The notes beneath the pieces were generated by a model. That model searched no databases and was not told the origin of the DNA. It saw only the letters and a program-made list of their open reading frames with translations. A DNA stretch of 63,408 bases, filler included, from Nitrospinota bacterium (GTDB lineage: Bacteria > JAUXIQ01), in assembly GCA_030620925.1 (NCBI GenBank). It is 8 parts of 8 records of this genome, joined end to end, with 100 filler letters (N's around TTAATTAATTAA, not from the genome) between each part and the next. Parts side by side here need not be neighbours in the genome. Positions count along the whole stretch, not along the records: positions 55,603 to 63,408 come from JAUXIQ010000079.1; 7 more parts are not named here. The stretch is one strand, 5' to 3'. The position numbers and the translations under genes were made by a program. Positions 10,056-63,408 of this stretch are shown piece after piece (the first letter of the stretch is position 1; the number at the start of each line of letters is the position of its first letter).

Positions 10056-10086
10056 GACATCACCATCTTTATGTTTGCCGGTTGAC

Positions 10087-16202: not shown

Positions 16203-16267
16203 GCTTGAAAATGTCGAATTACACGTCGAAGATGAAATCGAATGTTTCCAAGGGAAAGGATCGTTAA

Positions 16268-16649: not shown

Positions 16650-16749
16650 NNNNNNNNNNNNNNNNNNNNNNNNNNNNNNNNNNNNNNNNNNNNTTAATTA
16701 ATTAANNNNNNNNNNNNNNNNNNNNNNNNNNNNNNNNNNNNNNNNNNNN
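16650..16749. other. Artificial contig linker (N44-TTAATTAATTAA-N44)
   Basis: Ns flanking a six-frame stop sequence; identical at seven sites. Confidence 0.99.
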
Positions 16750-17622: not shown

Positions 17623-17668
17623 ACCTTTAAATACCTCAAATTTCTGAATAAAAAACCAAATCTTTAGT

Positions 17669-17696
17669 TAAATTTTTGCACTTAAATTGCCGATAA
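17669..17696 (+). promoter_or_regulatory. Putative sigma-28 (FliA/SigD-type) promoter
   Basis: TAAA (17669-72), 16 nt, GCCGATAA (17689-96), in an AT-rich intergenic region upstream of the HEAT/HD-GYP operon. Confidence 0.45.
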
Positions 17697-17807
17697 TCAA
17701 TGTGAATAGTCTTAAAAATAATCGCATCGTATAATAAATATAAAGGGTTAATTATTGTAGAGAGGGCCCCGTGAGTCCAAAATAATAAAAACCCTTGCGA
17801 GGAAGCT

Positions 17808-19367: not shown

Positions 19368-20824
19368 ACACTATAAATGAAAAAAACCAAAACGGACTTC
19401 CTTCCCGGCAGACAAAAAAATTGGTCGGAGAAAGTCTCCTCGAAGCGATCTTTCGTCTCACTAAAAGCGTTGCCCTCCATCAGTCCGCAAGCAGTATGAT
19501 CCTGGAGAGAATCGACGAGTTTAAGAAGGTTGTCCGGGAAGTCCAGGACGCCGGCTTCGATCCCTCGCTCATCAGGTCTGAAGGCCAGTTTTACCTTGGC
19601 GACGAAAGAATACAGTTTACCAGAAAGAATTTCGGTCTTGTCAATCAGATGATAGATATCTTCTACAGGAGAGGCGTCGCAGGTCTCTCATTCAGCGAGA
19701 CGATGCTGGATGTTCCGGTGAAAGAGATCTTTACATTTTTCAAAATCTTCCAGGAAGCGGAGAAAGAAATAAGCCCCGAGGAATATATTAAAAAAGCCGT
19801 AGAGGAAAAAACCATTTCCTGGGTAGAAGTTCATCTGGATATGATTAAAGCCAGTGGGCTGGAGCCTTTGAGTCCCAAGGAGCAGGCTAGAAGAAGCTAT
19901 CTCCACTCCATAGCCACGGTTAAAGAGGCTTACCAGAAAATTGAAGCCGGCCAGAAGGGAGGGATACGGAAAGCAAAAAGACTGGCACAGAACCTAGTGG
20001 ATGTGGCCCGTGATAATGAGGCGATCCTCCTGGGTATGACCACTCTTAAAAACTATGACGATTATACCTATAACCATTCGGTAAACGTGGCTGTGATGGC
20101 TATCTGCCTGGGGAAAAAGATCGGTCTTGAGCCTAAATCCTTGATGGAGCTCGCAATATGCGGGCTTTTTCACGATCTCGGAAAAACTTTAATCCCCAAG
20201 AATATTTTGAACAAGCAAGGGAAACTGGACGATTCAGAATGGGATGAGATAAGGAAGCACCCACTCAACAGCGTATGTAACATATTAAAGCTTCAGGCAC
20301 CATACGAACTTAAAGCCAGAGTAATCCTGTCCCCCTTCGAACATCACCAGCGGTATGACCTGTCAGGCTATCCCAGAGCCTCCTGGAAATCGGAAGTAAG
20401 CCTCTTCGGAAGAATCCTGGGCATAGTCGATTGTTATGATGCGATGACCTCTGAAAGAAGTTATCGCGACCATTCCATATCGCCCGATCGGAGCCTCAGC
20501 TTCTTGCTGGAAAAGTCCGGTAAAGACTACGACCCTGTTATTCTGAAAGTTTTTATTCAGATGATGGGTATCTTCCCCTCGGGGACTTTTGTAGAATTGG
20601 ACACAGGCGAAAAGGGGCTGGTAATAGAGAACAACGCGGATTCGGAAATGCTGGACAGGCCCAAAGTCCTGCTCCTCTTTGATGAAAAAGGGGAGAAGTT
20701 AACCGATAATGAGATTGTCGATCTCAATGAAAAGGATGAAAAATCGGACCGCTTCAAGAGAACCATCAAATCCTCCGCTGATGCCAAAGAGAACAATATC
20801 AACCCCGCCGAATATCTATGGTAG
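19364..20824 (+). CDS. HD-GYP domain protein (putative cyclic dinucleotide phosphodiesterase)
   Basis: YTYNHSVNV, HDLGK, KHP, EHH...SGYP, DCYDAMTSERSYR. Confidence 0.9.
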   Translation: MNTINEKNQNGLPSRQTKKLVGESLLEAIFRLTKSVALHQSASSMILERIDEFKKVVREVQDAGFDPSLIRSEGQFYLGDERIQFTRKNFGLVNQMIDIFYRRGVAGLSFSETMLDVPVKEIFTFFKIFQEAEKEISPEEYIKKAVEEKTISWVEVHLDMIKASGLEPLSPKEQARRSYLHSIATVKEAYQKIEAGQKGGIRKAKRLAQNLVDVARDNEAILLGMTTLKNYDDYTYNHSVNVAVMAICLGKKIGLEPKSLMELAICGLFHDLGKTLIPKNILNKQGKLDDSEWDEIRKHPLNSVCNILKLQAPYELKARVILSPFEHHQRYDLSGYPRASWKSEVSLFGRILGIVDCYDAMTSERSYRDHSISPDRSLSFLLEKSGKDYDPVILKVFIQMMGIFPSGTFVELDTGEKGLVIENNADSEMLDRPKVLLLFDEKGEKLTDNEIVDLNEKDEKSDRFKRTIKSSADAKENNINPAEYLW

Positions 20825-23859: not shown

Positions 23860-24972
23860 CTATATCAGCATCTCCAAAAAAGCTTGCACCCTGGTGCTTA
23901 TCTGTCCGATACCTGCGGCCGTATGCTCCCGGTCTATCTTAAGAAGCTGATAACCCGCCTCTTCCAACTTGTCTCGCACGATGGGAAAGTCATACTGGTA
24001 GGGGTCGCAAAATTTAAGGACGCTGTAAACGACCCCCTGCACCCGGTATTCCTCAGCCAGGTGTATAATATGTTCAATACGACGATCGTAATCGAACATC
24101 CTGGAGCAGGGAACGCGGCCGAGATAACGCCGCCCCAGCGCTTCGAGGGGGTCAGAGCTGCCTTCCTCCACCAGGTCCAGGAAATAGCGCGAACCGGTAC
24201 AGAGGTCATCGGCCACCACCATTCCTCCACCTTCTTCGATAACACTCACGTACTTGGGGTCGGCGCAGATGGAGCCTATTACGAGAACGCGGGGGCCTTC
24301 CTCATGGTAGGCGTCTCGCCCTTCGAGCTCCTCCAGGAGCTCCTCCAGCAACTCGTTATACTCTTCTCTGGAGAGGACGAAACCGGCCTTCACCACCTCA
24401 AGAGCTTCCGTACCAGTGATGGGCGGGTATTCCTCCACCCTCCTCGCGTATAGCTCCAGAAGGAGTTTTCTGGTCTTATTGTAGAGGGAAATGGCCTGGT
24501 TGAGGGCGTCATCGGTTATCTCGTTTCCGGTAAACTCCTCCAGGTGTTCCTTGAACGATGCCAGCTCGCGGACGAACCCCTCCATTCCTTCTTCATGGCT
24601 CTTATGAGGCACCCAAAGAATATGAGCAAATGGTGTTTTCACGAAATGGCACCAGGTATCGAAAAGGCGTCGCAGGCTGTCGCAGCTGTCGGTGGCTACC
24701 ACACCGGATAAGAGCCCCTGGCCGTTCTGAAGCCCCTCCATCAATGCCGCGCGGCAGAAGCCGCAGCTACTCATGGGAATGTAGGCATCGGCCTGTGAGA
24801 GGTCCTCCTCGGAGCTGCCGATAATCCTGTAAGGGTATAAGCCGGCCGCCAGAATCAGCTCTTCAGGAACGTAAGTACAAAGGTATCCTATCTTCTGTCT
24901 CTTGATATCGGCGAGTATTGCGCGCGCCTGTACGGGGTCGGCAAAACGTTTAAGTTTCTCCAGAGCGCTCAA
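23860..24972 (-). CDS. 2-hydroxyacyl-CoA dehydratase / benzoyl-CoA reductase subunit (HgdB/FldC/BcrC family)
   Basis: GYLCTYVPEELI.AAG, C..CR, DSCD, DDLCTGSRY, KFCDP, TRVQAFLEM. Confidence 0.9.
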   Translation of the reverse strand: MSALEKLKRFADPVQARAILADIKRQKIGYLCTYVPEELILAAGLYPYRIIGSSEEDLSQADAYIPMSSCGFCRAALMEGLQNGQGLLSGVVATDSCDSLRRLFDTWCHFVKTPFAHILWVPHKSHEEGMEGFVRELASFKEHLEEFTGNEITDDALNQAISLYNKTRKLLLELYARRVEEYPPITGTEALEVVKAGFVLSREEYNELLEELLEELEGRDAYHEEGPRVLVIGSICADPKYVSVIEEGGGMVVADDLCTGSRYFLDLVEEGSSDPLEALGRRYLGRVPCSRMFDYDRRIEHIIHLAEEYRVQGVVYSVLKFCDPYQYDFPIVRDKLEEAGYQLLKIDREHTAAGIGQISTRVQAFLEMLI

Positions 24973-25527: not shown

Positions 25528-26682
25528 ATGGGAGAAAGGATCATGGAATTCAGACTGACATCCGAACAACAGCAGCTCATCGACCTTGCCAGGGACTTCG
25601 CGGAAAAGGAGATGAAACCTAACGCCGACCGGTGGGACGAGGAGGGGGAATGGCCCCGCGAATGTTTCCAGAAAGCCGCGGATTTGAGCTTAACCGGAAT
25701 GCTCTGCCCCAGGGAGTACGGCGGCGCCGACATCGGGTTTCTGGGCACGGCTCTGGTTTATGAAGAGCTTGCCAAGGGATGTCTGGGGACTACCTTCAGC
25801 ATGGTGGTGCACAACAACTTCGTGCGCTCTGTCTTCTCGCGGGGCACCGAGGAGCAGAAACAGCAGTGGGGCGTTCCGGCCGTAAAGGGCGAAGTGCTGG
25901 GAGCCTTCTGCCTCACCGAGCCCGACCACGGCTCCGACGCCGGCAGCATCGAATCCACCGCCATCGCCCAGGGCGACTCCTACGTGATAAACGGCACCAA
26001 GTCTCTGGTAAGTAACGGCGGTGTGGCCGACTACTACCAGTTCCTGGCCAAGACGGACCCCGCAGCCGGCAAGCGGGGAATAAGCTCCATCATAGTGGAG
26101 CGGGATAAGGAGGGAGTTTCCTTCGGCCCCCGCGACAGGAAGATGGGCGCTAACGCTCTCATCACCTGCCAGATGACCCTGGAAAACTGCCGTATCCCCC
26201 GCAGCAACCTTCTTGGCGAAGAAGGTATGGGCCTCAGATACGCCCTGTCGGGAATAGACGTGGCGAGGGTCAACGTCGGGGCCTTATGCTGCGGTGTCTC
26301 CCAGGCGGCACTGGACGAAGCCGTGAAATACGCCAAGGAGCGGGTGCAGTTCGGTCAGCCGCTGGCCAATTTCCAGGGGCTTCAGTTTATGATGGCGGAT
26401 ATGGCCACCGAGATAGAAGCCACCCGTCTGCTGACCCATAAAGCCGCCTGGCTGCTGGACAACGACATGCCGGTCTCCGTCTCGGCCGCACACGCCAAAC
26501 GCTTCGGCGCAGATATGGCCATAAACGTCACCAACCGCGCCGTTCAAATTTTCGGCGCTTATGGCTACCTGCGCTCCTATCCCGTGGAGCGTTATCTTCG
26601 CTGGGCCAAGATGTGCGGTTTCGTCGACGGCACTACCCAGATACAGCAGGTGGTCATCGCCCGCCACCTGTTCAAAGAATAA
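25528..26682 (+). CDS. Acyl-CoA dehydrogenase
   Basis: EYGG, FCLTEPDHGSDA, INGTK, RVQFGQP, QIFGAYGY, GTTQIQ. Confidence 0.95.
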   Translation: MGERIMEFRLTSEQQQLIDLARDFAEKEMKPNADRWDEEGEWPRECFQKAADLSLTGMLCPREYGGADIGFLGTALVYEELAKGCLGTTFSMVVHNNFVRSVFSRGTEEQKQQWGVPAVKGEVLGAFCLTEPDHGSDAGSIESTAIAQGDSYVINGTKSLVSNGGVADYYQFLAKTDPAAGKRGISSIIVERDKEGVSFGPRDRKMGANALITCQMTLENCRIPRSNLLGEEGMGLRYALSGIDVARVNVGALCCGVSQAALDEAVKYAKERVQFGQPLANFQGLQFMMADMATEIEATRLLTHKAAWLLDNDMPVSVSAAHAKRFGADMAINVTNRAVQIFGAYGYLRSYPVERYLRWAKMCGFVDGTTQIQQVVIARHLFKE

Positions 26683-31629: not shown

Positions 31630-32853
31630 TTACTCCGCCGGCCTTGTTGAAGAACGTTCAGGCACCGGGTGAGATGAGGCAGTGAGAACCACCACTTTTT
31701 CTTTGAGGGCTTCGATCTCGCGTTTATCGTATCCCAGCCAATCCAGGATGTCTTCGGTGTGTTCGCCCAGGAGAGGGGCCGGAGATTCCACAGAAACAGG
31801 CGTTTTCTCCATTTTGAGGGGGAACCCCAGGGTTTGCAAATCGCCGGCGACGGGGTGTGTCTGCTTGATGAGAAGCTGATTAGCCAGGATGTGCTCGTCG
31901 TTAAAGAGGTCGTCGATGGTGTTCACCGGCCCACAGGGAACACCGGCCTCCTCCAGGAGGTCGGTCCACTCCGGGCTCGTTTTCTGTTGAAGTATTTTCT
32001 GAAAAACGGGTATGAGTTGTTGAGCGTTATGGAACCTGTTGGCGTGCGAGTTGAACCTCGGATCATCGCCCAGTTCTTCGACCCCCAGGGTCCGGCACAA
32101 TTTTTTAAACAGACCTTCGTTCAGGACGGCTACGTTGATGTATCCGTCACTGGTCTGGTACGTCCTGTAAGCGGGGTGATTACCGGTGGTACCATCGAAG
32201 GCGGGTTGTGACCTGTCTTCGCCCATCACCATGCGGTGGGCCTGCATGGCCATTGCCGAGCCGAGAAGCGAGGTATCCACCCGCTGCCCCTCGCCTGTCT
32301 CCTGTCTGTTATACAGTGCGGCCAGAATGCCGACAGCGGCCATCAGGCCGGAGGGCATATCTACCACTGAAGATTTATCCCTCTGGGGCGGGTTCTCGCC
32401 GCGGTCCATGACCGAAGCATAGCCCTGGAGCACGAGCTCGTAGGCCGCTTTATCGGTGTGGGGGCCTGCGGTGCCGAAACCGGTGGTGGAAGAATAGATG
32501 AGGCGCGGGTTGATGGCAGAGAGGGTGTCGTAGCCCAACCCCAGCTTTTCCATGGTGCCCGGCCGGGAGTTTTCCATGAATACGTCAGACCGTGCGGCGA
32601 GTTTAAGGACGATATCCCTGCCTTCCGCCTTTTTGAGGTCCACCGCCATGCTCTTCTTGTTGCGGTTCATTCCCAGGAACAAGTGGCTCTCGGTCTTCTG
32701 GAACGGAGGTCCCAGGGAACGCCCGCTGTCGCCGTGAAGCGGTTCGATTTTTATCACCTGAGCGCCCATGTCCGCAAGCAGCATGGACGCGAAAGGGCCC
32801 GCCAGGACCGTGGTGAGGTCAATCACAGTTATGCCGTGCAGAGGGCCACTCAT
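31630..32853 (-). CDS. CaiB/BaiF family III CoA transferase
   Basis: GPLHGITVIDLT..LAGPF..MLLADMGA.VIKIE, NRNKKS, ENSRPG, APLLGEHT. Confidence 0.93.
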   Translation of the reverse strand: MSGPLHGITVIDLTTVLAGPFASMLLADMGAQVIKIEPLHGDSGRSLGPPFQKTESHLFLGMNRNKKSMAVDLKKAEGRDIVLKLAARSDVFMENSRPGTMEKLGLGYDTLSAINPRLIYSSTTGFGTAGPHTDKAAYELVLQGYASVMDRGENPPQRDKSSVVDMPSGLMAAVGILAALYNRQETGEGQRVDTSLLGSAMAMQAHRMVMGEDRSQPAFDGTTGNHPAYRTYQTSDGYINVAVLNEGLFKKLCRTLGVEELGDDPRFNSHANRFHNAQQLIPVFQKILQQKTSPEWTDLLEEAGVPCGPVNTIDDLFNDEHILANQLLIKQTHPVAGDLQTLGFPLKMEKTPVSVESPAPLLGEHTEDILDWLGYDKREIEALKEKVVVLTASSHPVPERSSTRPAE

Positions 32854-37530: not shown

Positions 37531-38532
37531 TCAGGGCCGGTAAAAGTTATCGTTCCAGCCGGTGATCCGTAGTACGTTCTGCCGCCCCCTTCCGCGCCGC
37601 AATACGTCCGCCCGGATGACTCTCTTTCCCTCCCCCATATCGTTGCTTCCGGTGGCCTCTATGGTAAAGTAACTCGATTTCAGGGCGGGTCTGAACGTCC
37701 CCCTGGGGAACCTGTTCAGGAGCGCGGGTATGGAGCGATGGGGTCGGCCTGAAAGCAGGGTAACAAGTTTGGCATCATCGTATCCCAGGGCTCTGAGCAC
37801 CTCCTCCGGCGCGGAATTGATGTTCACCCTGTTGGAGCCGGTGATACTGATGAAATTCACCAATCCTTTATATCCCCCTTCCTCGACGTCCTTATAAGGC
37901 GTTCCGTAAAATATTTCCGCGGTTACCCCCTTGATCAGCAACAACTCTTCAACGGTGCTGAAACGTCCGTCCTTGGCGTGATAGGGGGGGGTCAGGCTCA
38001 AATAATAGCTGTCTTCCGCTCCGTTCAGGCGGTGGAGGTCGTCTTTGTCCACCCAATCCTGCATGGAATCTACTATGGTATCCCTCGTCTTTTTTTCCTT
38101 GATCCCCGTTTGCAGTAGTAGCTCATTCAGTATTGAGCTGTTTCTCACCGCCACGTTGACGTTGATCCTCCCTTCCTTATCTATTACTCGATAACTGTAA
38201 GTGCCTTCTCCCAGGTGGGTTCTCCGCCCGGCGGCCATCTCACCCCCCATTCCAGGTGTTTCCATTATCCCCCCCGGCAACGGCTCGATCTTTGCGAAGA
38301 CTACGTTCCCTTCGCCATCCAGGTAATTGAAATCGAAGTCGACGGACAATTCGGCCAACGCTCTCTCCACGCCGGCCCTGGCCAGATAGTAGAATTGCAT
38401 GTCATCTTTAAAATTCCTGGTAATGTTAACCTCGGTGCGCATGGAATAAGCGAACTCGGTCACTATGACCGTGAGGAGCGCCATTATCCACAATACCATC
38501 AGGAGAGCTATGCCCCGCTCATTTCTTTTCAT
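37531..38532 (-). CDS. gspK: T2SS minor pseudopilin GspK
   Basis: ERG|IALLMVLW, DKEGRINVN, DWVDKDD, GAEDSYY, EELLLIKG, VNINSAP. Confidence 0.92.
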   Translation of the reverse strand: MKRNERGIALLMVLWIMALLTVIVTEFAYSMRTEVNITRNFKDDMQFYYLARAGVERALAELSVDFDFNYLDGEGNVVFAKIEPLPGGIMETPGMGGEMAAGRRTHLGEGTYSYRVIDKEGRINVNVAVRNSSILNELLLQTGIKEKKTRDTIVDSMQDWVDKDDLHRLNGAEDSYYLSLTPPYHAKDGRFSTVEELLLIKGVTAEIFYGTPYKDVEEGGYKGLVNFISITGSNRVNINSAPEEVLRALGYDDAKLVTLLSGRPHRSIPALLNRFPRGTFRPALKSSYFTIEATGSNDMGEGKRVIRADVLRRGRGRQNVLRITGWNDNFYRP

Positions 38533-39203
38533 CTGCTCGGCACTCCCCTGGAAGTGCCGCCTCTCACCGCTGCGGCGGAAGTGTTTATTATACGACCGGT
38601 ATATATGGGTACGATTACAGGGGGCAGTTCTATCCTTTTATCCTCTTCGATGACCGCGGTGAGAGTTATCTCCACCGCGCCCGGAAGCCCGCGAAATTCT
38701 TTAGAGTCCCAATTCTTAAACCATTCCTTGATATCACCCTTCTCATTATAGTATCTGAACTCAATACTTTCCGCTCCGTCGAAAAGGGGGACCGCCTTCC
38801 CCCCCGTAACCGATTCGTCGAAGGGATAACCCTCCTCCATCACCAGCCGACCCTGGGAATCGATGTAATAGGAGACCCTGCGCACCCCGTAGATGTCTGA
38901 AAGAGGCCCAAGCCCCCCGGTGGTGGTGTGGAAGGTGACCTTGTCGTTTTCACCGACGAAACTGGTGACCTTGTCGCTGTCTGCATGGAAGGCCGAGCGC
39001 ATATCCTCCATGATCTGCTCGGTCATCATCCTCAGGTGCTGATATCCGTCCACCCGCTGGTGCCCCTTCTCCCAGGAGCGTATTCCCAGCCTCAACACAC
39101 CCACCATTATGCCTATGATCATGGCCCCGATGGTGAATGCTACAAGCAGCTCTAAAAGGGTGAACCCTTTGCTGGAGTTTTTCCTCCGTTCAACCTCAAG
39201 CAT
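38529..39203 (-). CDS. gspJ: T2SS minor pseudopilin GspJ
   Basis: KG|FTLLELLVA, C-terminal W...W......LP.AVEI; gene order. Confidence 0.85.
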   Translation of the reverse strand: MLEVERRKNSSKGFTLLELLVAFTIGAMIIGIMVGVLRLGIRSWEKGHQRVDGYQHLRMMTEQIMEDMRSAFHADSDKVTSFVGENDKVTFHTTTGGLGPLSDIYGVRRVSYYIDSQGRLVMEEGYPFDESVTGGKAVPLFDGAESIEFRYYNEKGDIKEWFKNWDSKEFRGLPGAVEITLTAVIEEDKRIELPPVIVPIYTGRIINTSAAAVRGGTSRGVPSR

Positions 39204-39228
39204 GAAAGCGTCATCCTCCTGAAGGCCG

Positions 39229-39645
39229 CTAGGGATTCACCGCGGGGCTGGTTTTAAGCGTGCTCAGCTCCACATACTTCTGGCGCCCGAGCCCGGGCCA
39301 TTTCACCCGTACTTTTAAAACGTGCGCCTGGACGTTTGCGTAGCGATCATCTTCCTCATCGCTCAACGGATGAGGCAAAACCTCCGTTTCCCAGGTATAG
39401 TCTGTTCCCTCGATCACCCCGCTCCCGGCCCCACCCTCCTGATTCTCATAAAAAACGGCTTCTTCCATTTTCTGTCGGGCGTAGAGGAGGGCCATGGTAT
39501 ACTCTTCTGAAACCTTGACCGAGCGAAGGCCCCCTGCAAACAGTTGCATCACCAGCACCAACCCCATGCCCAGGATGGCCAGGGCCACCATCACCTCAAG
39601 CAGCGTAAACCCCCGCCGATGTGTCTTAAAATCTTTCTTTCTCAA
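39229..39645 (-). CDS. gspI: T2SS minor pseudopilin GspI
   Basis: RG|FTLLEVMVALAI; gene order. Confidence 0.85.
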   Translation of the reverse strand: MRKKDFKTHRRGFTLLEVMVALAILGMGLVLVMQLFAGGLRSVKVSEEYTMALLYARQKMEEAVFYENQEGGAGSGVIEGTDYTWETEVLPHPLSDEEDDRYANVQAHVLKVRVKWPGLGRQKYVELSTLKTSPAVNP

Positions 39646-40204
39646 GGCTTTTTATCCTCACCTTTCCCGTAATCGCATCCACATTAAGGTGATAACCGGT
39701 CTTTCCCCATTTTAAAATCAGTGACGACCCGCTGGAATTCCCTTTGGCGTAGAACCTTATCTCCAGAAGGTCCTCCCGGCCGGAGGAGGAATAAGACTCT
39801 TCTTCCCTTTCCACTACAAGCCCCGGAGGCAGTTTTCCCCTCCGCAAACTGATACCCGGTGCAGACGATGCGCCCGTTCCCGCTTCCTTTCCCGCTCCGT
39901 TTCCGGCATAGCGTAAAACTTTTGAAGGGGCAAGGGTATAGACGCCCTTCCGGGTATCGATGATCACCTTATACGTTTCTTTTGTATGTACTGCCTGGCT
40001 TCTGGCATGGCGGAGAGCGGCGGCAAGCTCTCTGATGGCGGTCCGGTGGCGGAGGGTTTCCACGCTCTTCCTCACATCGGGAGCGATCAAGGCCAGGGCC
40101 AAACCCATGATGACCAGAACGACGACGAGTTCAAGAAAGGTAAATCCGCCCTGGGACGAAGAGCTGAGCGAACAGCTTCTCCTTCGGCCCAAAAGCGAAA
40201 GCAT
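39626..40204 (-). CDS. gspH: T2SS minor pseudopilin GspH/FimT-like (start uncertain, 40204-40294)
   Basis: GG|FTFLELVVVL, ARSQA, IRFYAKGNSSG, VDAITG. Confidence 0.85.
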   Translation of the reverse strand: MLSLLGRRRSCSLSSSSQGGFTFLELVVVLVIMGLALALIAPDVRKSVETLRHRTAIRELAAALRHARSQAVHTKETYKVIIDTRKGVYTLAPSKVLRYAGNGAGKEAGTGASSAPGISLRRGKLPPGLVVEREEESYSSSGREDLLEIRFYAKGNSSGSSLILKWGKTGYHLNVDAITGKVRIKSLEKERF

Positions 40205-40256
40205 GGAGGGGTATTTCCCCTGGCTCTTTTTCCCCCGGTCCGAGATCACGGCCGCC

Positions 40257-40655
40257 TCATTCCCAGCTGTTGATGGGTTTGTCGCCTCCACCATTCGAGG
40301 TCAGCCGGTAGTCCTTGCCGCCGTCCTGAACCTCATACAGGTACTCTTCGCCCCAGGGGTCCAGGGGAATCTTGTTCTTCCTCAGGTAGGGACCATCCCA
40401 TTTGTCTTGCGAAGATTGGACCAGCTCCTCCAACCTGTTGGGGTATCCCCCCAGGTCCAGGCGGTAGCTGTCAAGCGCGGTGGCGAACAGCTCTATCTGA
40501 GCCCGCGCCGTCGCTCTCTTGGATTTCTCCACCTTGCCGAAAAGGCGCGGCCCCACGAGGGACGCCAGCAGGCCGATGATTACTATCACCACCAGCAATT
40601 CTATGAGCGTGAACCCCCTCTGCCTGGATCCGGCTCTCGCATCTCCCATGCCCAT
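40257..40655 (-). CDS. gspG: T2SS major pseudopilin GspG
   Basis: RG|FTLIELLVV, ALDSYRLD.G.YP, WDGPYL, DPWG..Y.Y, SWE. Confidence 0.92.
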   Translation of the reverse strand: MGMGDARAGSRQRGFTLIELLVVIVIIGLLASLVGPRLFGKVEKSKRATARAQIELFATALDSYRLDLGGYPNRLEELVQSSQDKWDGPYLRKNKIPLDPWGEEYLYEVQDGGKDYRLTSNGGGDKPINSWE

Positions 40656-40753
40656 ATCCGGGTACCTCCACTCGAGGAAAAATTTATACCGGAAAGACTG
40701 CTCAACCTCTCACAACAAACACTTTTAAGCTCAACTGCCATCCCGATGCGGAA

Positions 40754-41971
40754 TTAAAAAGGAATATCGTTTATGCTGAAAATGGCCAGAAGCATGGACA
40801 ACACTATGAACCCCACTATGGCCCCCAGGATGAGTATCATGGTCGGCTCCATGAGTGCTATGAGCCTCTTAACGGTGGTTTGCACCTGCTTCTCATAGGT
40901 ATCAGCAGCCTTGTACAGCATCATCTCCAGGTTGCCCGTCTCTTCACCGACAGACACCATCCTGATGAACAGGGGAGGGAAAACGCCCGTCTTGTCCAGC
41001 GGCTCGGAGATTCCTCCTCCCTCCCTGAGCCTCTCGCTTGCTTCCCGAACCGCCCTGGCGAAAACCCGGTTACCGACCGAATCTCCGACCACCAGCAGGG
41101 ATTGATAGAGAGGAATACCGTTGGCCAGCAGCGTCCCCAGTGTTCGGGCGAAGCGAGCGGTTTCATTGAGCAGAAAAAACTTCCCCAGCACCGGCAGCTT
41201 TATCTTGGTGCCGTCATACCAGACCGATCCCTGCTCCGTGTTCCGGTAAGCGCGTATGCTCAGAAGCACCGCCGTGATGCACAGGGCTATCAACCACCAA
41301 TAATCCTTCACTCCCACGCTCAAAGTAATCAGCACCTGGGTAGAGGCGGGCAGTGCTCTTCCCTGCTCGGCGAAAATCTGGGCGAACCTGGGTATCACCA
41401 TGGTGAGCAGTATGGCCACCGCCGCGCCGCCCACGGTGACCAGTATGATGGGGTAGAGCATGGCCGAAATTATATACTCCCTTACCTCCTGCGCATTTTC
41501 CATGTACCCCGCCAACCGCTCCACGACGTTCTCCAGGAAGCCCCCCGTCTCACCGGCACGAACCATGTTCACGTAGGTGTTGGAAAACAGTCTGGGGTGC
41601 TGCGCCAGGCACTCGGAGAGGGAGCTTCCGCTCCTCAGCTCATTGAGAATTTCGCGGATAACTTCTCTCATTCGGGGATTTTCCGCCAGGTCTGAAAGGG
41701 TGTCCAGACTCCGCTCAAGCGGGAAACCGGCGCTCAGGAGGGTGGCCAGCTCACGGGTGAAGGTGGTCACGTCCAGACTCTTGACCCTTTTGAAATAAAC
41801 TCCGACCTCTGCGCCGGACTGGACGTCGAGGGCCGAGGGTGTCTCAACTTTTATGGGATATAGACCAAGTGACTGGAGGCGGTTCACCACCACCTGCTCA
41901 TCCCTGGCTTCCATGGTGCCGTCCACTATGCCGCCCTCTTTGTTGGCGGCTTTATATGTGTAGTGTGCCAT
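40754..41971 (-). CDS. gspF: T2SS inner membrane platform protein GspF
   Basis: Two T2SSF repeats: AGETGG.L, YP.IL, VGEETGNL, EP.MIL. Confidence 0.93.
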   Translation of the reverse strand: MAHYTYKAANKEGGIVDGTMEARDEQVVVNRLQSLGLYPIKVETPSALDVQSGAEVGVYFKRVKSLDVTTFTRELATLLSAGFPLERSLDTLSDLAENPRMREVIREILNELRSGSSLSECLAQHPRLFSNTYVNMVRAGETGGFLENVVERLAGYMENAQEVREYIISAMLYPIILVTVGGAAVAILLTMVIPRFAQIFAEQGRALPASTQVLITLSVGVKDYWWLIALCITAVLLSIRAYRNTEQGSVWYDGTKIKLPVLGKFFLLNETARFARTLGTLLANGIPLYQSLLVVGDSVGNRVFARAVREASERLREGGGISEPLDKTGVFPPLFIRMVSVGEETGNLEMMLYKAADTYEKQVQTTVKRLIALMEPTMILILGAIVGFIVLSMLLAIFSINDIPF

Positions 41972-42109
41972 TCTCTTCGAACCCCTGTTTTAAGGGCATT
42001 CTTTATGTTAGACGAAGGAAGCGATGCCTCGAATATATCGCATTTCACCCCCCTGGAGGATTTCCTGATAGGAAGGACGCGAGGGGCGTATGGTCTTCCC
42101 CTCACGCTG

Positions 42110-43657
42110 TCACTCTTCAGTCTCTATGGTGACCCTGAGTACCTCTTCCACACTGGTCAAACCCTGCCGGACTTTATCCCAGCCGTCCTCCCGGAGCAGA
42201 CGCATGCCCTGCCCTATTCCCTTCTGCCTGATGATGTTGGAGCTGGTCTTGGCAACGATCGATTCACGTATGGCGTCGGTTACCGACAGGAGCTCAAAAA
42301 TACCCAAACGGCCCCTATAGCCGGTTTGGTCGCACTCCGGGCACCCTTTGGGTCGGTAGACAACAACGTCCTCTTTAAGGGCATCGACGTCTATACCCTT
42401 GAGAACGTCAGAGTCGGGACGGTAGGACTCCTTGCACTGCGGACAAAGGATACGCACCAGGCGCTGGGCCAGGATTCCTTCCAGAGACGAGGCCACCAGA
42501 TAGTGTTCGACCCCCATATCCAGGAGCCGGGTGATCGCCCCCGCTGCGTCGTTGGTGTGCAGAGTGCTCATGACCAGGTGTCCGGTGAGGGCGGACTCTA
42601 TGGCTATCTCCGCCGTCTCGGCGTCGCGTATCTCGCCCACCATTATTATATCCGGGTCCTGGCGTACGATGGACCTCAGACCGTTGGCGAAGGTAAGCCC
42701 TATCTGGGGTTTAACCTGTATCTGGTTCACACCGACCAGTTGATACTCCACGGGGTCTTCGACGGTGATGACCTTTTTCTCGTGAGTGCTTATTTTCTGC
42801 AGCGCTGCGTAGAGAGTGGTGGTCTTACCGCTGCCGGTGGGCCCGGTTACCAGGATCATCCCGTAAGGTTTCTCGATTACTCGCTTAAAGAACTCCAGGT
42901 CTCTCACCGGAAAACCCAGCTCCTCCAGGCTCAACAGTATGCTGCCCCTGTCGAGCAACCTCATTACCACGCTTTCCCCGTAGAGGGTGGGCACCGTGGA
43001 GACGCGTATATCCACCTCCCTGCCCGAAACCCGGAGGCGGATGCGGCCGTCCTGGGGCAGTCTCCTCTCAGCTATATTCAGGTCGGCCATCAGCTTCACC
43101 CTGGAGATAATGGCCGATTGCAGTCTACGGGGCGGGGTATCCACATCCCTGAGCACACCGTCTACACGATAGCGGACATATAGTCTATCCTCGAAAGGCT
43201 CGATATGAATATCGCTGGCCCGGTTCTCAACGGCTTTAGTGATGAACAGGTTCACAAGTTTTATTATGGGGGCCTCGGAGGCCATGTCGCGAAGGTGGTC
43301 TACATCCTCCTTATCTTCGCTCCCGACGTCCATCCCTTCCCCCTTCATGTCGTCGATTATCTTCTCCATGGTGGTTGCGCCGCTGCCGTAGAACCTCTCG
43401 ATGGCCTCCAGTATATCTTTGCCCTCCCCGACGTGAACTTTCAGTTGATACCCGGTGGCGAGCTTGATGCCGTCGAGCGTTTTAAAATCCCAGGGGTCGG
43501 CGATAGCAACGAAGAGGGTATCGCCATCCAGCCTGAGGGGATACACGAGGTGTTCCTTGAGAAACTTTACCGAGAGGTTCCCAACGAAGTTGGGCTGCTG
43601 CAAAAGCTCTGATGAGTCCACCCGCGGATAGTCCGGCTCACCGTCTTCCGGGGTCAT
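42110..43657 (-). CDS. gspE: T2SS ATPase GspE (frame open to the contig edge; may start upstream)
   Basis: ASDIHIEP, RLPQDGR, GPTGSGKTTT, RQDPD, CxxC...CxxC zinc motif. Confidence 0.95.
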   Translation of the reverse strand: MTPEDGEPDYPRVDSSELLQQPNFVGNLSVKFLKEHLVYPLRLDGDTLFVAIADPWDFKTLDGIKLATGYQLKVHVGEGKDILEAIERFYGSGATTMEKIIDDMKGEGMDVGSEDKEDVDHLRDMASEAPIIKLVNLFITKAVENRASDIHIEPFEDRLYVRYRVDGVLRDVDTPPRRLQSAIISRVKLMADLNIAERRLPQDGRIRLRVSGREVDIRVSTVPTLYGESVVMRLLDRGSILLSLEELGFPVRDLEFFKRVIEKPYGMILVTGPTGSGKTTTLYAALQKISTHEKKVITVEDPVEYQLVGVNQIQVKPQIGLTFANGLRSIVRQDPDIIMVGEIRDAETAEIAIESALTGHLVMSTLHTNDAAGAITRLLDMGVEHYLVASSLEGILAQRLVRILCPQCKESYRPDSDVLKGIDVDALKEDVVVYRPKGCPECDQTGYRGRLGIFELLSVTDAIRESIVAKTSSNIIRQKGIGQGMRLLREDGWDKVRQGLTSVEEVLRVTIETEE

Positions 43658-45070: not shown

Positions 45071-46201
45071 TTACGCGAGCATTTCCAGAAAAGCGCCCAC
45101 GCGGGTAGATGTCTGTCCGGCGGCTGAGACGGCGTACTCACGCTCCAGGCGCAGCACCGGCACCTCCATCTCCTCCAGCCGCACCCGGGTGAGGGGATAA
45201 TTATAGACCCAGGGGTCGCAATATTTAAGTGCGTTGTATATCACCCCCTGGACATCATACTCCTCCACCATCTGCTTGATGAAATCGTAACGCTTCTCAT
45301 TGTCGAACATTCGCGTACAGGGGAGGCGGCATAGATAGCGATAGCTCAAATGCGCTATCTGCTTTTCAAGCTCGCTGCTGGTCTCCACCAGGTCCCAGAA
45401 ATAGCGGGAGCCCGTGCAGAGATCATCGGCGACAACCAGGCCGCCCTGGTCTTCGACGCTTTTTATCTCTTCGGGATTGCTGAGAATACTGCCGCTGATG
45501 AGTATGCGGGCATCCCCCTCGTAGCGCAGGTCGCGCTCCTCCAGCTCGACTATGGCCTTTTCAAGCAGTTCGTTGTATTCCGGCCTGGGCATCACCATGG
45601 AGGCGGTCACTATAGCCAGGCACTCGTGGCCGGAGACGAGGGGCTTTTCATCCTTTCTCAGCTCGTAGAGGCCCCGAAGCAATTCCCGCGTGCGGTTATA
45701 AACGTCGATGGCTTCACCCAACGATTCAGCGGTGATCTCTTTTTCGCTGTATACCTCGAGCCCCTTTTTGAGCTCTAATAAATGTTTGGTGAATACATCC
45801 ACGGAATCCTGGTTATCTTTGTGGGGTAAGTCCAGCATGAATGAGAACGCAGGGTTTTTGTACTGTTCCCAGTGATCGTAGAGGCGGGTCATTATCCGGC
45901 ATGAGGAAGTGGTAACCACACCGTCCAGAAAAGGGTACTTGTCATTGAGAACGTCTTCCAGCACCGTGCGGCAGAAGGGACAACTGTTGGCGGGAAGGTA
46001 GCCCTCAGAAACGGGTGTGGGGTCCCACCAGTGTCCCATGACCCGATAAGGCAGTATACCTGCGGCGTAAATCAATTCCTCAGGGACGTAGGTGCAGAGG
46101 TAGCCTATAACTTTATCTCCCCCCTCGTGCCATTTCTGCGCTCCTGCATCCTGGTTTTCCCTGGTGTTAACATTGAGCAGCTTATCGAGAGCTTGAGTCA
46201 C
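45071..46201 (-). CDS. 2-hydroxyacyl-CoA dehydratase subunit (HgdB/FldC/BcrC family)
   Basis: GYLCTYVPEELI, CPFCR, DDLCTGSRY, KYCDP, TRVGAFLEM; paralog of 23860-24972. Confidence 0.9.
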   Translation of the reverse strand: MTQALDKLLNVNTRENQDAGAQKWHEGGDKVIGYLCTYVPEELIYAAGILPYRVMGHWWDPTPVSEGYLPANSCPFCRTVLEDVLNDKYPFLDGVVTTSSCRIMTRLYDHWEQYKNPAFSFMLDLPHKDNQDSVDVFTKHLLELKKGLEVYSEKEITAESLGEAIDVYNRTRELLRGLYELRKDEKPLVSGHECLAIVTASMVMPRPEYNELLEKAIVELEERDLRYEGDARILISGSILSNPEEIKSVEDQGGLVVADDLCTGSRYFWDLVETSSELEKQIAHLSYRYLCRLPCTRMFDNEKRYDFIKQMVEEYDVQGVIYNALKYCDPWVYNYPLTRVRLEEMEVPVLRLEREYAVSAAGQTSTRVGAFLEMLA

Positions 46202-48172: not shown

Positions 48173-49390
48173 ATGATGCAGCCATTAGAAGGGATCAAAG
48201 TCGTCGATCTGAGCACCTGGGCGTTCGCTCCCGTTTGTGCAGCAACTTTAGGAGATTGGGGCGCTGAGGTAATCAAGATCGAGGACCCTCGAACCGGTGA
48301 TAACTTCCGCGAGTTCCTTTCCGTACTAGGAATTGATGAAAGCCAGATGCCGATTTCTCTGTTCGGGCTGAACAACCGTAACAAACGCGGGATGGCCGTT
48401 GACCTGAAGAAGAAGGAGGGTAAGGAAATCCTCTACAAACTGATTGAGGACGCGGATATCTTTGTGAGTAATCTCCCGACCCGGGCTCTCGAAAGGCTGC
48501 AGATGGACTACGGCAAACTTTCATCCATCAATCCCCGCCTTGTTTACGCCCATGCCACCGGCTATGGCGACAAAGGACCGGATGCCAACAAACCCGGTTT
48601 CGACGCCTCCGCATTCTGGGCCCGGAGCGGCCTGATGGCCGGCTTGGGCGTTGAGGGACAGCCGCCGGTTTCTCAGCAGTTCGCCGGAATCGGCGACCAG
48701 GTGTGCGGCCTTGTATTTTTCGGCGCGGTAATGCTGGCCCTGTTCAACAGGGAGAAGACAGGCCGAGGCCAGGAAGTGGACCTTTCACTTTACGGCGTCG
48801 GAACCTGGGTCACGAGCCTTCCCATCCAGATGGTGCTTTCAAGCGGGGAGGAACCCCAGCGAACGGTAAGACAGGAAGGACGAAATCCCACTAGCAACTA
48901 CTACGAGTGCCGGGACGGCCGGTGGCTCTTTATCATCAGTCTTCCGGACGAGCCTTACTGGTCTCCGCTGTGCAAGGTCCTCGGCCTGGGGGGCGTTGAG
49001 CAGGATCCGAAATTCGCCACCCGCAAAGCCAGGCTGGAAAACAACATCGAACTGTTTTCCATTATTGAAAAAGCTTTCAAAACCAGGAACAGGGATGATT
49101 GGGCTGAGCTTCTCGATGAAAACGGTATCGTCTGGACGCACATCCCTTCGAACTTTCAGGAGGTCATTGACGACCCTACGACTTCAGCCAACGAACATAT
49201 CGTGGAAGTAGAACATCCTGAATTCGGCCCGAGCAAGATCATAACCACGCCCATCCGCCTTAACAAGGAAGCCCCCCCTATCAGGACCCTGGCCCCGGAA
49301 CTCGGCCAGCACAATGAAGAGGTGCTGCTGGAAATGGGTTACACCAGGAAGGATATAACCAAGCTCAAGGATGAGGGCGTTATTCCCTGA
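48173..49390 (+). CDS. CaiB/BaiF family III CoA transferase
   Basis: PLEGIKVVDLS, LGDWGAEVIKIE, NRNKR, APELGQHNEEVL. Confidence 0.93.
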   Translation: MMQPLEGIKVVDLSTWAFAPVCAATLGDWGAEVIKIEDPRTGDNFREFLSVLGIDESQMPISLFGLNNRNKRGMAVDLKKKEGKEILYKLIEDADIFVSNLPTRALERLQMDYGKLSSINPRLVYAHATGYGDKGPDANKPGFDASAFWARSGLMAGLGVEGQPPVSQQFAGIGDQVCGLVFFGAVMLALFNREKTGRGQEVDLSLYGVGTWVTSLPIQMVLSSGEEPQRTVRQEGRNPTSNYYECRDGRWLFIISLPDEPYWSPLCKVLGLGGVEQDPKFATRKARLENNIELFSIIEKAFKTRNRDDWAELLDENGIVWTHIPSNFQEVIDDPTTSANEHIVEVEHPEFGPSKIITTPIRLNKEAPPIRTLAPELGQHNEEVLLEMGYTRKDITKLKDEGVIP

Positions 49391-62684: not shown

Positions 62685-62760
<76 letters not shown>

Positions 62761-62873
62761 ACTCGGTTCATTAATATAGAGTCAAACGCCTTCAAGGGTC
62801 AACACAAAAATTTTTCCGCCTCTTTATCTGTGATAATTAAATAAAGCAACAAATACATTTTTGAGGGAATGAA

Positions 62874-63287
62874 ATGGATCCCGTAATGACTGCTATAGTT
62901 TCTGCACTCGCCATGGGTGTGGCGAGTTCTGTTACTACAATTGTTGAGAAGAACATCGTAGATGCATACGGTGCTCTTAAGTCGGTTATAAAAAAGAAAT
63001 TTGGCGAAAACAGTGATGTGGTCAAAGCAATGAACGATCTTGAAGATAAGCCAGAGTCCTCTGGTCGAAAAGCAACACTTAATGAAGAAGTGGTGGCAGC
63101 CAAAGCTGACCAGGAAGCCGAAATCATCAAGATTGCACAAGCTTTGCTGGAACAGATTAAATCCAAGCCCGGCGGTGAACAGCATATTCAAACAGCTATG
63201 GGCAATTACATTGCTCAGGCTGATCATAGAAGTAAAGCTACAGTAAATATTAACCGACTGAGGAAAGGTGATGGTGAGTCAGGATGA
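62874..63287 (+). CDS. Small helical protein, Bell-domain-like, with a C-terminal putative amyloid-signalling motif
   Basis: MDP..TAIV.AL..G hydrophobic N-helix, DAY..LK..I..KF, LE.KP.S..R, C-terminal QTAMGNYIAQADHRSKATVNI; RBS GAGGG upstream. Confidence 0.75.
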   Translation: MDPVMTAIVSALAMGVASSVTTIVEKNIVDAYGALKSVIKKKFGENSDVVKAMNDLEDKPESSGRKATLNEEVVAAKADQEAEIIKIAQALLEQIKSKPGGEQHIQTAMGNYIAQADHRSKATVNINRLRKGDGESG

Positions 63288-63408
63288 ATCTGACAGGCAA
63301 ACAGCTAAGGGTAAATATATTGCCCAGGCACATGGAGAAGGTTCTGAAGCTAAGGTAGAATTTATCCAGAACCTGCTAGAGCTTGGTGAAAAACCCGGTG
63401 ACACCCTC
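63271..63408 (+). CDS. N-terminus of a downstream protein carrying the matching motif (predicted NLR/STAND-type sensor; truncated by window end)
   Basis: RBS GAGGAAAGG then ATG; 46 open codons MVSQDESDRQTAKGKYIAQAHGEGSEAKVEFIQNLLELGEKPGDTL. Confidence 0.7.
   Translation, partial: MVSQDESDRQTAKGKYIAQAHGEGSEAKVEFIQNLLELGEKPGDTL

Follow-up and report, generated by a model that had tools for sequence, protein, structure and literature searches.

Candidate amyloid signalling motifs in an overlapping gene pair

Do two overlapping genes at the end of the window (the whole stretch of DNA analysed, 63,408 nt) encode an effector and a receptor that communicate through an amyloid-forming peptide? Immune signalling by amyloid templating was first demonstrated in fungi and mammals; for bacteria it was a prediction of 2020, and a link to phage defence followed with the 2024 description of an amyloid defence pair in E. 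coli (Ibarlosa et al. 2024, bioRxiv 10.1101/2024.11.07.622273). ORF1 and ORF2 are very probably an effector/receptor pair of the BASS type, comprised of a Bell protein with a C-terminal motif of about 27 residues and an NB-ARC-type STAND/NLR receptor with a related motif at its extreme N-terminus.

ORF1 (62874-63287, plus strand) encodes 137 aa from an ATG at 62874, and a Shine-Dalgarno-like GAGGG (62863-62867, plus strand) is read in the sequence 6 nt 5' of this start. Residues 1-99 (62874-63170) make up the Bell/HetE-N globular domain, delimited by a Pfam match and by helices predicted with AF2, and residues 101-127, GEQHIQTAMGNYIAQADHRSKATVNIN (63174-63254), constitute the effector-side, candidate amyloid-signalling motif, delimited by conservation in the family and by alignment with the N-terminus of ORF2. 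The second gene lies on the same strand and starts at ATG 63271, with a Shine-Dalgarno-like GAGGA (63260-63264) likewise read 6 nt 5' of it, or at the alternative GTG 63268, giving 46 or 47 residues up to the window end and an overlap with ORF1 of 17 or 20 nt, respectively. Its frame (63271-63408, plus strand) is open at the 3' end and, to judge by its relatives, probably encodes the N-terminus of an NB-ARC(-TPR) NLR-like receptor. The receptor-side motif, QTAKGKYIAQAHGEGSEAKVEF (63298-63363, plus strand), was delimited from the ORF list and from the alignment with ORF1.

The first-pass annotation had described two overlapping genes on the same strand that share a peptide, and this holds: the peptides lie exactly at 63189-63251 and 63298-63363, and a recount of the earlier alignment again gives 12 identical residues over 22 columns, one of which is a gap. 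Common to both sequences is QTAxGxYIAQA plus a pattern of S, A and V. In a gapped local BLOSUM62 alignment the two proteins score 44 over the block EQHIQTAMGNYIAQA / ESDRQTAKGKYIAQA (10 of 15 residues identical), a score reached by 55 of 20,000 shuffles of ORF2, and from the window alone the significance of the peptide similarity is moderate. The core pattern G-x-[YFHNG]-[IN]-[AG]-Q-[AVS] occurs at just these two sites in the six frames of the 63.4-kb window. The second halves of the motifs are unlike, that of ORF2 (GEGSEAKVEF) being charged as against DHRSKATVNI in ORF1, and with three K and three E the ORF2 motif is atypical for motif composition.

At the DNA level the repeat is just 32 nt long, with 84% identity and a spacing of 109 nt. 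Different codons are used at 4 of the 10 identical residues of the block, and the four codon differences noted earlier (GGC/GGT, TAC/TAT, GCT/GCC and GCT/GCA) are all correct. The view that these reflect selection on the peptide rather than a fresh DNA duplication is upheld both by the codons and by the recurrence of the pairing in 74 of 99 related loci; judged from comparison with those loci, the motif pairing is certain.

ORF1 is a Bell-type protein

ORF1 matches the Pfam family PF20701 (HetE-N) at 26.9 bits (cut-off 25; E 6.3e-6) over residues 1-99, and the only other Pfam matches at E <= 1 are PEX14-like_2nd and MreB-like_C, with HeLo or HeLo-like domains absent. PF20701 is precomputed for all 28 relatives of ORF1 (127-142 aa), HetE-N is also the family of the nearest clusters in the ESM Atlas, and none of 14 control genomes matched the family. 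A protein identical to ORF1 is on record from one further contig, 7,806 nt long. The protein starts with MDPVMTAIVSALAMGVA, i.e. MDP, in which the second residue is acidic, ahead of a hydrophobic helix; in the 29-sequence family alignment M1, P3, A7 and A11 are near-invariant and position 2 is D or E. Full-length ORF1 keeps all 14 family-invariant positions, eight of which fall in residues 101-124, the C-terminal motif being the best-conserved region of the family.

AF2, run on the 29-row alignment, places helices at residues 3-16, 23-43, 48-58, 63-76 and 82-96, a predicted five-helix bundle (mean pLDDT 73, pTM 0.65; mean pLDDT of 81-91 per 10-residue block over residues 31-100). In this monomer model residues 101-116 are helical and 117-137 unstructured, with no sign of a beta-fold; the block means over residues 101-120 are 72 and 50. 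Bell proteins have been described as stand-alone proteins of some 120-140 aa in which the N-terminal helix is hydrophobic and position 2 or 3 acidic, and were modelled as five-helix bundles (Dyrka et al. 2020, bioRxiv 10.1101/2020.01.06.895854). Judged by its sequence and predicted structure, ORF1 matches these published features in length, acidic position 2, hydrophobic first helix and five-helix prediction. We infer that Pfam HetE-N corresponds to "Bell" from these common features and not from direct homology of ORF1 to the prototypes ONI86675.1 and CAB66307.1.

A literature search on HetE-N or PF20701 gave nothing relevant, none of the PADLOC models fits ORF1 or ORF2, and NCBIfam held nothing useful for either. 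A PDB sequence search with the ORF1 family profile returned designed helical repeats only (best E 0.0073), Foldseek matched the ORF1 model to no PDB entry at E <= 0.001, and the wide VIA-align search reached at best Z 6.0, with unrelated generic helical proteins and within helical-bundle noise. Solved Bell, Bab, HeLo or MLKL structures were not recovered by these fold searches, which says nothing either way.

Related loci

The survey comprised 99 related loci, 19 from genomes and 80 from metagenomes, scored with a motif threshold of 45. In 74 of them the motif lies at the N-terminus of a co-oriented ORF whose start adjoins the stop codon of the Bell gene, and recurrence of the motif in adjacent genes, a check set beforehand, was thus found. 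The remaining loci have the motif in another nearby ORF (4), fall below the threshold (17), have too little downstream DNA (3) or an open Bell ORF (1); in five of the 17 sub-threshold loci the next ORF does carry the core pattern, and in another two the best match below 45 lies at +26 or +33 nt. The gap between Bell gene and partner has a median of 3 nt, with 18 of 68 pairs overlapping and 47 of 68 lying 0-20 nt apart.

A Walker A motif (G-x4-GK[ST], within 220 residues) is present in 56 of 57 downstream proteins of at least 150 aa. Ten downstream proteins were scanned against Pfam, with NB-ARC or NACHT above cut-off in eight and TPR families in five; together with six library proteins (below), 14 of 16 scanned partners have NB-ARC or NACHT above cut-off and none of the 16 has a PIN or GreA/B family. 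The layout originally proposed, an effector with the motif at its C-terminus beside a receptor with the motif at its N-terminus, is therefore borne out, ORF1 being of the PF20701/Bell type and the paired loci having NB-ARC/NACHT STAND partners. Among 56 non-redundant pairs, motifs are more similar within pairs (mean 64.75, reached by none of 10,000 permutations) than between pairs (58.7), and the cognate partner is the best motif match in only three. ORF1 and ORF2 are among the least alike, their score of 44 ranking 44th of 56 when the ORF1 motif is compared with all receptor-side motifs.

The loci span at least five phyla (Chloroflexota, Actinomycetota, Acidobacteriota, Alphaproteobacteria and Patescibacteria), and the motif family is common in soil-type metagenomes. 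The metagenome scan contained no locus identical to the window. No relative of the Bell family was found in phage records, 142 pattern matches in viral contigs yielded no confirmed relative, and a plasmid search gave 10 weak matches only. Decayed pairs exist, since 9 of 43 closed downstream ORFs in the relatives extend for fewer than 200 aa after the motif, and since in loci L064-L067 the NLR is frameshifted into pieces of 182 aa and 495 aa and then interrupted, within the TPR region, by a transposase-like gene. A Bell remnant truncated at the N-terminus lies on a Paraburkholderia replicon, without an NLR neighbour.

ORF2 as the probable start of a receptor

Because the window ends after 46-47 residues of ORF2, its NLR nature is read from relatives. 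Residues 1-33 show 64% identity (pairwise E 9e-13) to the N-terminus of P0044, a 455-aa NB-ARC protein, and the identity to the N-terminus of the NB-ARC protein adjoining the Bell gene in locus L020 is 56-59%; the alignment with relatives ends after residue 33. The L020 partner scores 29.4 bits for NB-ARC, and the partners in L048 and L052 have a GMGGIGKT P-loop about 70 residues in. The receptor-side subtype GEGxxAKVE of ORF2 also occurs in these three loci, in P0044 and in P0118, and at all positions invariant in its four closest relatives the ORF2 motif has the same residue. Of the six library proteins judged closest to ORF2 by N-terminus, all six have NB-ARC above the Pfam cut-off and four have TPR. 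When longer proteins were searched with nothing but the 47-aa fragment, none of 13 candidates matched.

ORF2 is thus most likely the start of an NB-ARC-type STAND/NLR receptor, whose NOD would lie beyond the window, probably followed by C-terminal TPR repeats. In L020, L048 and L052 the Bells closest to ORF1 stand beside the receptors closest to ORF2, so the pair is inherited as a whole.

Motif composition and proposed mechanism

The effector-side motifs (n = 55) are rich in A (15%), Q (12%), S (11%), G (10%), I (9%), V (8%) and N (8%) and poor in K (0.8%), L (0.3%) and P (0.1%). BASS motifs are reported to have approximately 25 residues, with enrichment in Q/N/G/V/I and depletion of K/P/L, and in the survey that described them 91% of pairs were collinear and 42% overlapping (Dyrka et al. 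2020). By this comparison of sequences, the family motif has the composition described for BASS motifs. A literature search found no published experiments on the ORF1/ORF2 motif family, and full-text searching for the string YIAQA together with "amyloid" returned no paper; the running text of the BASS papers holds no motif strings, the BASS1-10 logos being given in figures and supplements.

Experiments on BASS1 and BASS3 pairs showed fibrils, prion behaviour and conversion of the effector motif by that of the receptor. By extension from what has been published for other BASS classes, ORF1 and ORF2 may be expected to form amyloid and to cause cell death. Reasoning from HET-S/NWD2, from Bab/Agp and from those BASS1 and BASS3 pairs that have been tested, we propose the following model: a trigger, most likely phage infection, would cause the NLR to oligomerise, gathering its N-terminal motifs into a cross-beta nucleus that would template the C-terminal motif of Bell into the same fold. 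The N-terminal helix of the templated Bell would thereby be freed to attack the membrane, leading to cell death (abortive infection). A complex prediction with two copies of ORF1 residues 96-137 and ORF2 residues 1-47 fell short of the mark of 0.32 with a score of 0.09 and gave no answer.

It is conceivable, though on balance doubtful, that the pattern Q-x-A-x-G-x-Y-I-A-Q-A-D-R-G-S-T-A-x-V-N-V defines a BASS class outside the published BASS1-11, spread horizontally over at least the five phyla listed above (Chloroflexota to Patescibacteria) and an anaerobic diderm, among them lineages for which multicellularity is not known, with a subclade whose receptor side has a conserved, charged and non-identical half (GEGxxAKVE). 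If this is true, that half could be a gatekeeper that blocks nucleation by the receptor motif until the NLR oligomerises, and templating would be heterotypic instead of like-for-like.

Alternative explanations

The least plausible alternative is that the similarity arose by chance or by a recent local DNA duplication and has no function. The window-only alignment score is just moderately unusual (55 of 20,000 shuffles) and the 32-nt stretch is 84% identical, as such an origin would have it, but the two-gene motif pairing, seen in 74 of the 99 loci and across at least five phyla, refutes this explanation, and the different codons at 4 of 10 identical residues and the position of the motif in the most conserved part of the ORF1 family speak against it as well. 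It is highly improbable that ORF2 is a non-NLR sensor with the same motif, e.g. of the TPR-GreA/B-C-PIN architecture of Agp or another effector-associated one, given NB-ARC above cut-off in all six library proteins closest to its N-terminus, the NB-ARC of the L020 partner (29.4 bits) and the early GMGGIGKT P-loops in L048 and L052. The partner range is nevertheless wide: those reported for BASS11 are TIR, CHAT, EAD7, NACHT, NB-ARC and Agp-type (Ibarlosa et al. 2024), and within our survey the 1037-aa partner in L003 has TPR families only, without a Walker A motif, and that in L044 is a divergently oriented protein of 2088 aa.

Another possibility is that the motif serves as a recognition peptide without amyloid, for instance through helical or beta-strand heterodimerisation that tethers Bell to the receptor or inhibits it there. 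The AF2 helix at ORF1 residues 101-116, the strongly different second halves of the two motifs and the low rate of cognate best matches (3 of 56 pairs) would all fit such a role. Fungal cognate motif pairs, however, are also far from identical, a templated cross-beta fold is not expected from a monomer AF2 model, in which the confidence of this segment is low, and the motifs agree with BASS motifs in composition, length, position and gene layout, every tested BASS example having given fibrils and prions; we consider a non-amyloid role quite improbable. Somewhat less so, but still unlikely, is that the locus is a genuine Bell/BASS pair in decay, with ORF2 truncated, frameshifted or interrupted just past the window and the module non-functional. 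The starts of both ORFs are intact and preceded by good ribosome-binding sites, ORF1 is full length with 14 of 14 invariant family positions, and the ORF2 motif keeps all residues invariant in the four closest relatives, none of which points to decay; on the other side stand the end of the window 46 codons into ORF2, the divergence of ORF2 from its relatives after residue 33, and the decayed relatives themselves, i.e. the 9 of 43 short downstream ORFs, the L064-L067 NLR with its 182-aa and 495-aa pieces and transposase-like gene, and the Paraburkholderia remnant without an NLR neighbour. Against decay, short ORFs of metagenome contigs may also be assembly errors. A functional BASS-type effector/receptor pair remains the reading we favour.

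Comparison with known systems

The logic of the proposed pair is that of fungal HET-S/NWD2 and HELLP/HELLF, in which an N-terminal motif of the NLR templates the C-terminal prion-forming motif of a neighbouring pore-forming helical effector. The effector there is HeLo or HeLo-like, whereas ORF1 has no HeLo match in Pfam at E <= 1, and by this analogy the ORF1/ORF2 system would work like the fungal HeLo/HET-S family and is not a member of it. The fungal motif families (HRAM, sigma and PP) differ from the ORF1/ORF2 motif, and HET-s has two pseudo-repeats compared to a single copy in ORF1.

The closest likeness is to the Bell/BASS/NLR pairs of Dyrka et al. 2020, which have in common with ORF1 and ORF2 a Bell of approximately 130 aa with a hydrophobic N-terminal helix and acidic position 2, a C-terminal motif of about 25 residues, rich in Q/N/G/V/I and poor in K/P/L, that is repeated at the N-terminus encoded by a collinear overlapping gene, and NB-ARC/NACHT plus TPR partners (here, those of relatives). 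They differ in that the host of ORF1 and ORF2 is apparently an anaerobic diderm and not an actinobacterium or cyanobacterium, and in that, in the ORF2 subclade, the second half of the receptor motif is charged (GEGxxAKVE) and does not resemble the effector side. The Bab/Agp pair (BASS11) of E. coli ECOR25, which is antiphage and acts by abortive infection via amyloid-triggered membrane damage, likewise combines a small Bell-related helical effector bearing a C-terminal amyloid motif with an adjacent gene product whose N-terminus bears the motif, its surroundings being of the mobile or defence-island type (Ibarlosa et al. 2024). Bab has 109 aa compared to 137 aa for ORF1, the motif class differs, the ORF1 family is absent from the phage records and viral contigs searched, and, in contrast to Agp with its TPR-GreA/B-C-PIN make-up, the closest relatives of ORF2 are all NB-ARC, ORF2 itself being open at the window end. 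All-in-one NLRs with Bell-like N-termini (Avs2 and bNACHT02/11/23, cited in Ibarlosa et al. 2024) have a related N-terminal helix and an antiphage STAND NTPase, but there the effector is fused to the NLR, whereas ORF1 and ORF2 are separate genes linked by the motif.

The first-pass annotation overstated the novelty of a system outside actinobacteria and cyanobacteria, as the 2020 survey already reports Bell in Acidobacteria, Flavobacterium, a multicellular deltaproteobacterium and Archaea, and paired motifs in Ktedonobacter (Dyrka et al. 2020). The locus is a fresh example of a layout known since 2020 and opens no new category. It adds a well-supported example in an apparently anaerobic, outer-membrane-bearing host, and its motif family extends to several phyla other than the actinobacteria and cyanobacteria on which the original survey put its emphasis; the proposed link to multicellularity is therefore weakened. 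The 99 loci also supply natural effector/receptor motif pairs, some of them markedly non-identical, for gauging how much similarity cross-seeding needs.

Host and genomic context

An anaerobic diderm host, as initially suggested, is plausible: the window encodes an LptD-like protein, GspE/F/K and two proteins of the benzoyl-CoA-reductase/2-hydroxyacyl-CoA-dehydratase type. RecA of the window has 67-71% identity to its counterparts in four genomes, each of a different phylum, and had no match in a fifth genome, a result that is uninformative for placing the host. A tRNA-Val gene (anticodon CAC; 62685-62760, minus strand), called by ARAGORN and scoring 69.4 bits for Rfam tRNA, marks the boundary between a housekeeping block (dxr, pgpA-like, thpR-like and recA) and the low-GC Bell/NLR pair. 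The GC3 of the pair is 0.36 as compared to 0.73-0.76 for its neighbours; the low GC3 and the position beside tRNA-Val suggest that the pair was probably acquired horizontally, with the tRNA gene as a possible integration site.

Gene pair and shared motif

Two genes in the same orientation lie within the final 650 bases of the window, ORF1 (62874-63287, + strand, 137 aa, with its ATG six bases past GAGGG) and ORF2 (+ strand, starting at ATG 63271 or GTG 63268, six bases past GAGGA), which overlap by 17-20 nt; ORF2 continues for 46-47 codons to the window end. The first-pass annotation had reported a peptide common to the C-terminus of ORF1 (63189-63251) and the N-terminus of ORF2 (63298-63363). 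Both peptides were found at these positions, a recount agrees on 12 identities across 22 columns of the alignment, and the sequence bears out each of the four differences in codon use that had been named (GGC/GGT, TAC/TAT, GCT/GCC and GCT/GCA). At the DNA level the repeat between the two motifs covers just 32 nt at 84% identity. When the two proteins were aligned locally with gaps, the score was 44, reached by 55 of 20,000 ORF2 shuffles, and the core pattern G-x-[YFHNG]-[IN]-[AG]-Q-[AVS] is absent from all six frames of the window outside the two motif sites. The shared peptide is confirmed as a real observation, of moderate significance from the window alone.

ORF1 matches the Pfam family HetE-N (PF20701) over residues 1-99 at 26.9 bits (cut-off 25), with nothing further in PADLOC and NCBIfam scans. 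Searching 5.8 billion proteins by word index yielded 50 candidates, of which 29, including the window's own protein, form a family; the relatives are each 127-142 aa long, carry PF20701 and show 43-62% identity to ORF1. Conservation is higher in the C-terminal segment (G-G-E-Q-H-I-Q-x-A-x-G-x-Y-I-A-Q-A-D-R-G-S-T-A-T-V-N-V) than in the globular part, since 8 of the 14 invariant columns of the family alignment fall within residues 101-124. An AlphaFold2 model built on this alignment (mean pLDDT 73) has five confident helices (3-16, 23-43, 48-58, 63-76 and 82-96), followed by a low-confidence helix (101-116) and a disordered tail. Dyrka et al. (2020; bioRxiv 10.1101/2020.01.06.895854) describe the Bell domain as a five-helix bundle of about 130 aa with an acidic residue at position 2 and a hydrophobic helix 1. 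Because ORF1 has these features in common (size, MDP start, hydrophobic first helix and predicted five-helix bundle), we infer that Pfam HetE-N is the Bell domain, equated with the published prototypes by description of features.

A protein search with the 47-residue ORF2 fragment as sole query gave no match. ORF2 is 44-59% identical to the N-termini of the partners in the three related loci whose Bell proteins are nearest ORF1 (L020, L048 and L052), and a profile built from ORF2 and these three partners was run against 1.84 billion representatives and retrieved 60,504 proteins at E <= 0.001, with the NB-ARC part dominating. Among the best 150 of these 60,504 matches, 12 have the core motif in the first 80 residues, and the closest is P0044 (455 aa), with 64% identity to ORF2 residues 1-33, after which the alignment of ORF2 with its relatives ends. 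In P0044 and five other proteins picked by eye for similar N-termini, Pfam found NB-ARC above cut-off in all six and TPR repeats in four. Because its N-terminal relatives carry NB-ARC, ORF2 very probably encodes the N-terminus of an NB-ARC(-TPR) receptor, with the window stopping ahead of any domain.

Downstream partners in related loci

We compared 99 related Bell loci (19 from species-representative genomes and 80 from metagenomes), taking for each the best local match of the final 40 residues of the Bell ORF in every other ORF, with a threshold of 45; second-best scores in these loci, taken as background, are mostly 22-48. The recurrence of the motif as C-terminal/N-terminal pairs in adjacent genes, put forward as a check in the first-pass annotation, is borne out in 74 of the 99, where the match is the N-terminus of a co-oriented ORF beginning beside the Bell stop. 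The match lies in a different nearby ORF in four loci (L012, L016, L018 and L044), being an upstream NLR in L012 and L016 and the second of two NLRs in L018; downstream DNA is too short in three loci and the Bell ORF is open in one. The remaining 17 score under the threshold, the next ORF retaining the core pattern in five of them and the best match lying at +26 or +33 nt in two. Measured from the candidate start codon closest to the Bell stop, the median gap to the partner is 3 nt, with overlap in 18 of 68 pairs. A Walker A motif occurs within 220 residues in 56 of the 57 partners of at least 150 residues. Pfam detected NB-ARC or NACHT above cut-off in eight of ten partners and TPR families in five; the L003 partner has TPR alone, and that of L004 has TPR and an AAA_16 match under threshold. 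Judged by these domains, the Bell-adjacent partners in relatives are STAND NTPases.

Some loci depart from the simple pair. In Ktedonobacter sp. SOSP1-85 (L018:10001-15700) a single Bell gene precedes a pair of consecutive NLR-like ORFs (623 and 913 aa from stop to stop), one adjacent and the other 2.5 kb downstream. A nearly identical motif opens both, and therefore a single Bell effector may be shared by the two receptors. In L044 the motif partner is a divergently transcribed 2088-aa ORF (L044:9688, - strand, and 10001-10402, + strand), not a downstream NLR. Four contigs (L064-L067, e.g. L066:1441-6028) carry a decayed copy of the system, the Bell-adjacent NLR being broken into 182-aa and 495-aa ORFs and a 467-aa transposase-like ORF preceding another TPR fragment. 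The Paraburkholderia sp. PGU19 replicon NZ_AP023181.1 (L104:3881-4246) carries an N-terminally truncated Bell remnant that is not annotated and retains a degenerate motif (…GTGIAQATGNSAATVNLY…), without an NLR neighbour.

Motif co-variation and composition

In 56 non-redundant pairs the mean motif score within pairs is 64.75 vs. 58.7 between pairs, a small excess that none of 10,000 permutations reached. In some subclades both sides are altered alike, as in L004 and L094, with Y-N-A-Q-V-Y/H-G-S-G in effector and receptor. The cognate receptor is the top match in just 3 of the 56 pairs, and the window's own pair ranks 44th, among the least similar. The ORF2 motif belongs to a receptor-side subtype whose second half is charged (G-E-G-x-x-A-K-V-E), kept in L020, L048, L052 and the proteins P0044 and P0118. 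The composition of the family motif, high in A, Q, S, G, I, V and N and low in K, P and L, fits BASS motifs as they have been described.

Comparison with known systems

The gene-and-motif layout of ORF1 and ORF2 is that by which a BASS pair is defined, and we consider it highly likely that they form a Bell/BASS-NLR pair. Fibrils, prion behaviour and receptor-to-effector conversion have been demonstrated for BASS1 and BASS3, and for BASS11 (Bab/Agp) work in E. coli showed that phage infection activates a Bell-related effector through amyloid, with membrane damage and abortive infection (bioRxiv 10.1101/2024.11.07.622273). By analogy we propose that a trigger would cause the NLR to oligomerise, the N-terminal receptor motifs would nucleate, the nucleus would template the ORF1 C-terminus, and the Bell N-terminal helix would become exposed, resulting in cell death. 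The AlphaFold2 monomer model has no beta fold for the ORF1 motif, at best a weak piece of evidence.

Going by record titles, the 19 loci from genomes comprise Actinomycetota (8), Chloroflexota (5, three of them Ktedonobacteria), Alphaproteobacteria (3), Acidobacteriota (2) and a Dojkabacteria MAG (1). This kind of system is already known, since the 2020 survey (bioRxiv 10.1101/2020.01.06.895854) includes Bell domains in Acidobacteria, Flavobacterium, a multicellular deltaproteobacterium and Archaea, as well as Ktedonobacter motif pairs; the spread seen here is just somewhat wider than published, and the reading of ORF1/ORF2 as a further example is well supported. The same survey describes BASS1 and BASS2 as actinobacteria-specific and BASS7-10 as cyanobacteria-specific. 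Unlike these, the present motif family is limited to neither group, which does not by itself settle its class. A full-text literature search for the motif string gave no match.

Genomic context and host

Genes for dxr, a pgpA-like, a thpR-like and a recA product, read from translations, lie upstream, and tRNA-Val(CAC) (62685-62760, on the opposite strand to these) lies between them and ORF1. GC content is 43.5% in ORF1 and 53.5% in the rest of the window, and GC3 is 0.36 in ORF1, 0.73 in recA and 0.76 in dxr. Because this sharp break (62685-63408) falls at the tRNA gene, the pair appears to mark one end of a horizontally acquired island next to that gene, the other end of which would lie past the window.

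An LptD-like protein (5638-7770) and a GspK-like, GspF and GspE cluster (37531-43657; type II secretion or type IV pilus) support a putative outer-membrane-bearing host. Two paralogous proteins of the double-cubane/benzoyl-CoA-reductase subunit/2-hydroxyacyl-CoA-dehydratase type (23860-24972 and 45071-46201, - strand), both under curated cut-offs, with CoA-transferases (31630-32853 and 48173-49390) and an acyl-CoA dehydrogenase (25528-26682) near them, suggest anaerobic acyl-CoA metabolism. The anaerobic diderm host assumed at first reading fits all of these genes; the window RecA is 67-71% identical to RecA of four genomes from four phyla. A second low-GC stretch (<46%) spans 16100-20200 and contains a 519-aa ORF (17808-19367) without an NCBIfam match at E <= 1e-10, past which lies a 486-aa protein weakly matching a response-regulator c-di-GMP phosphodiesterase.
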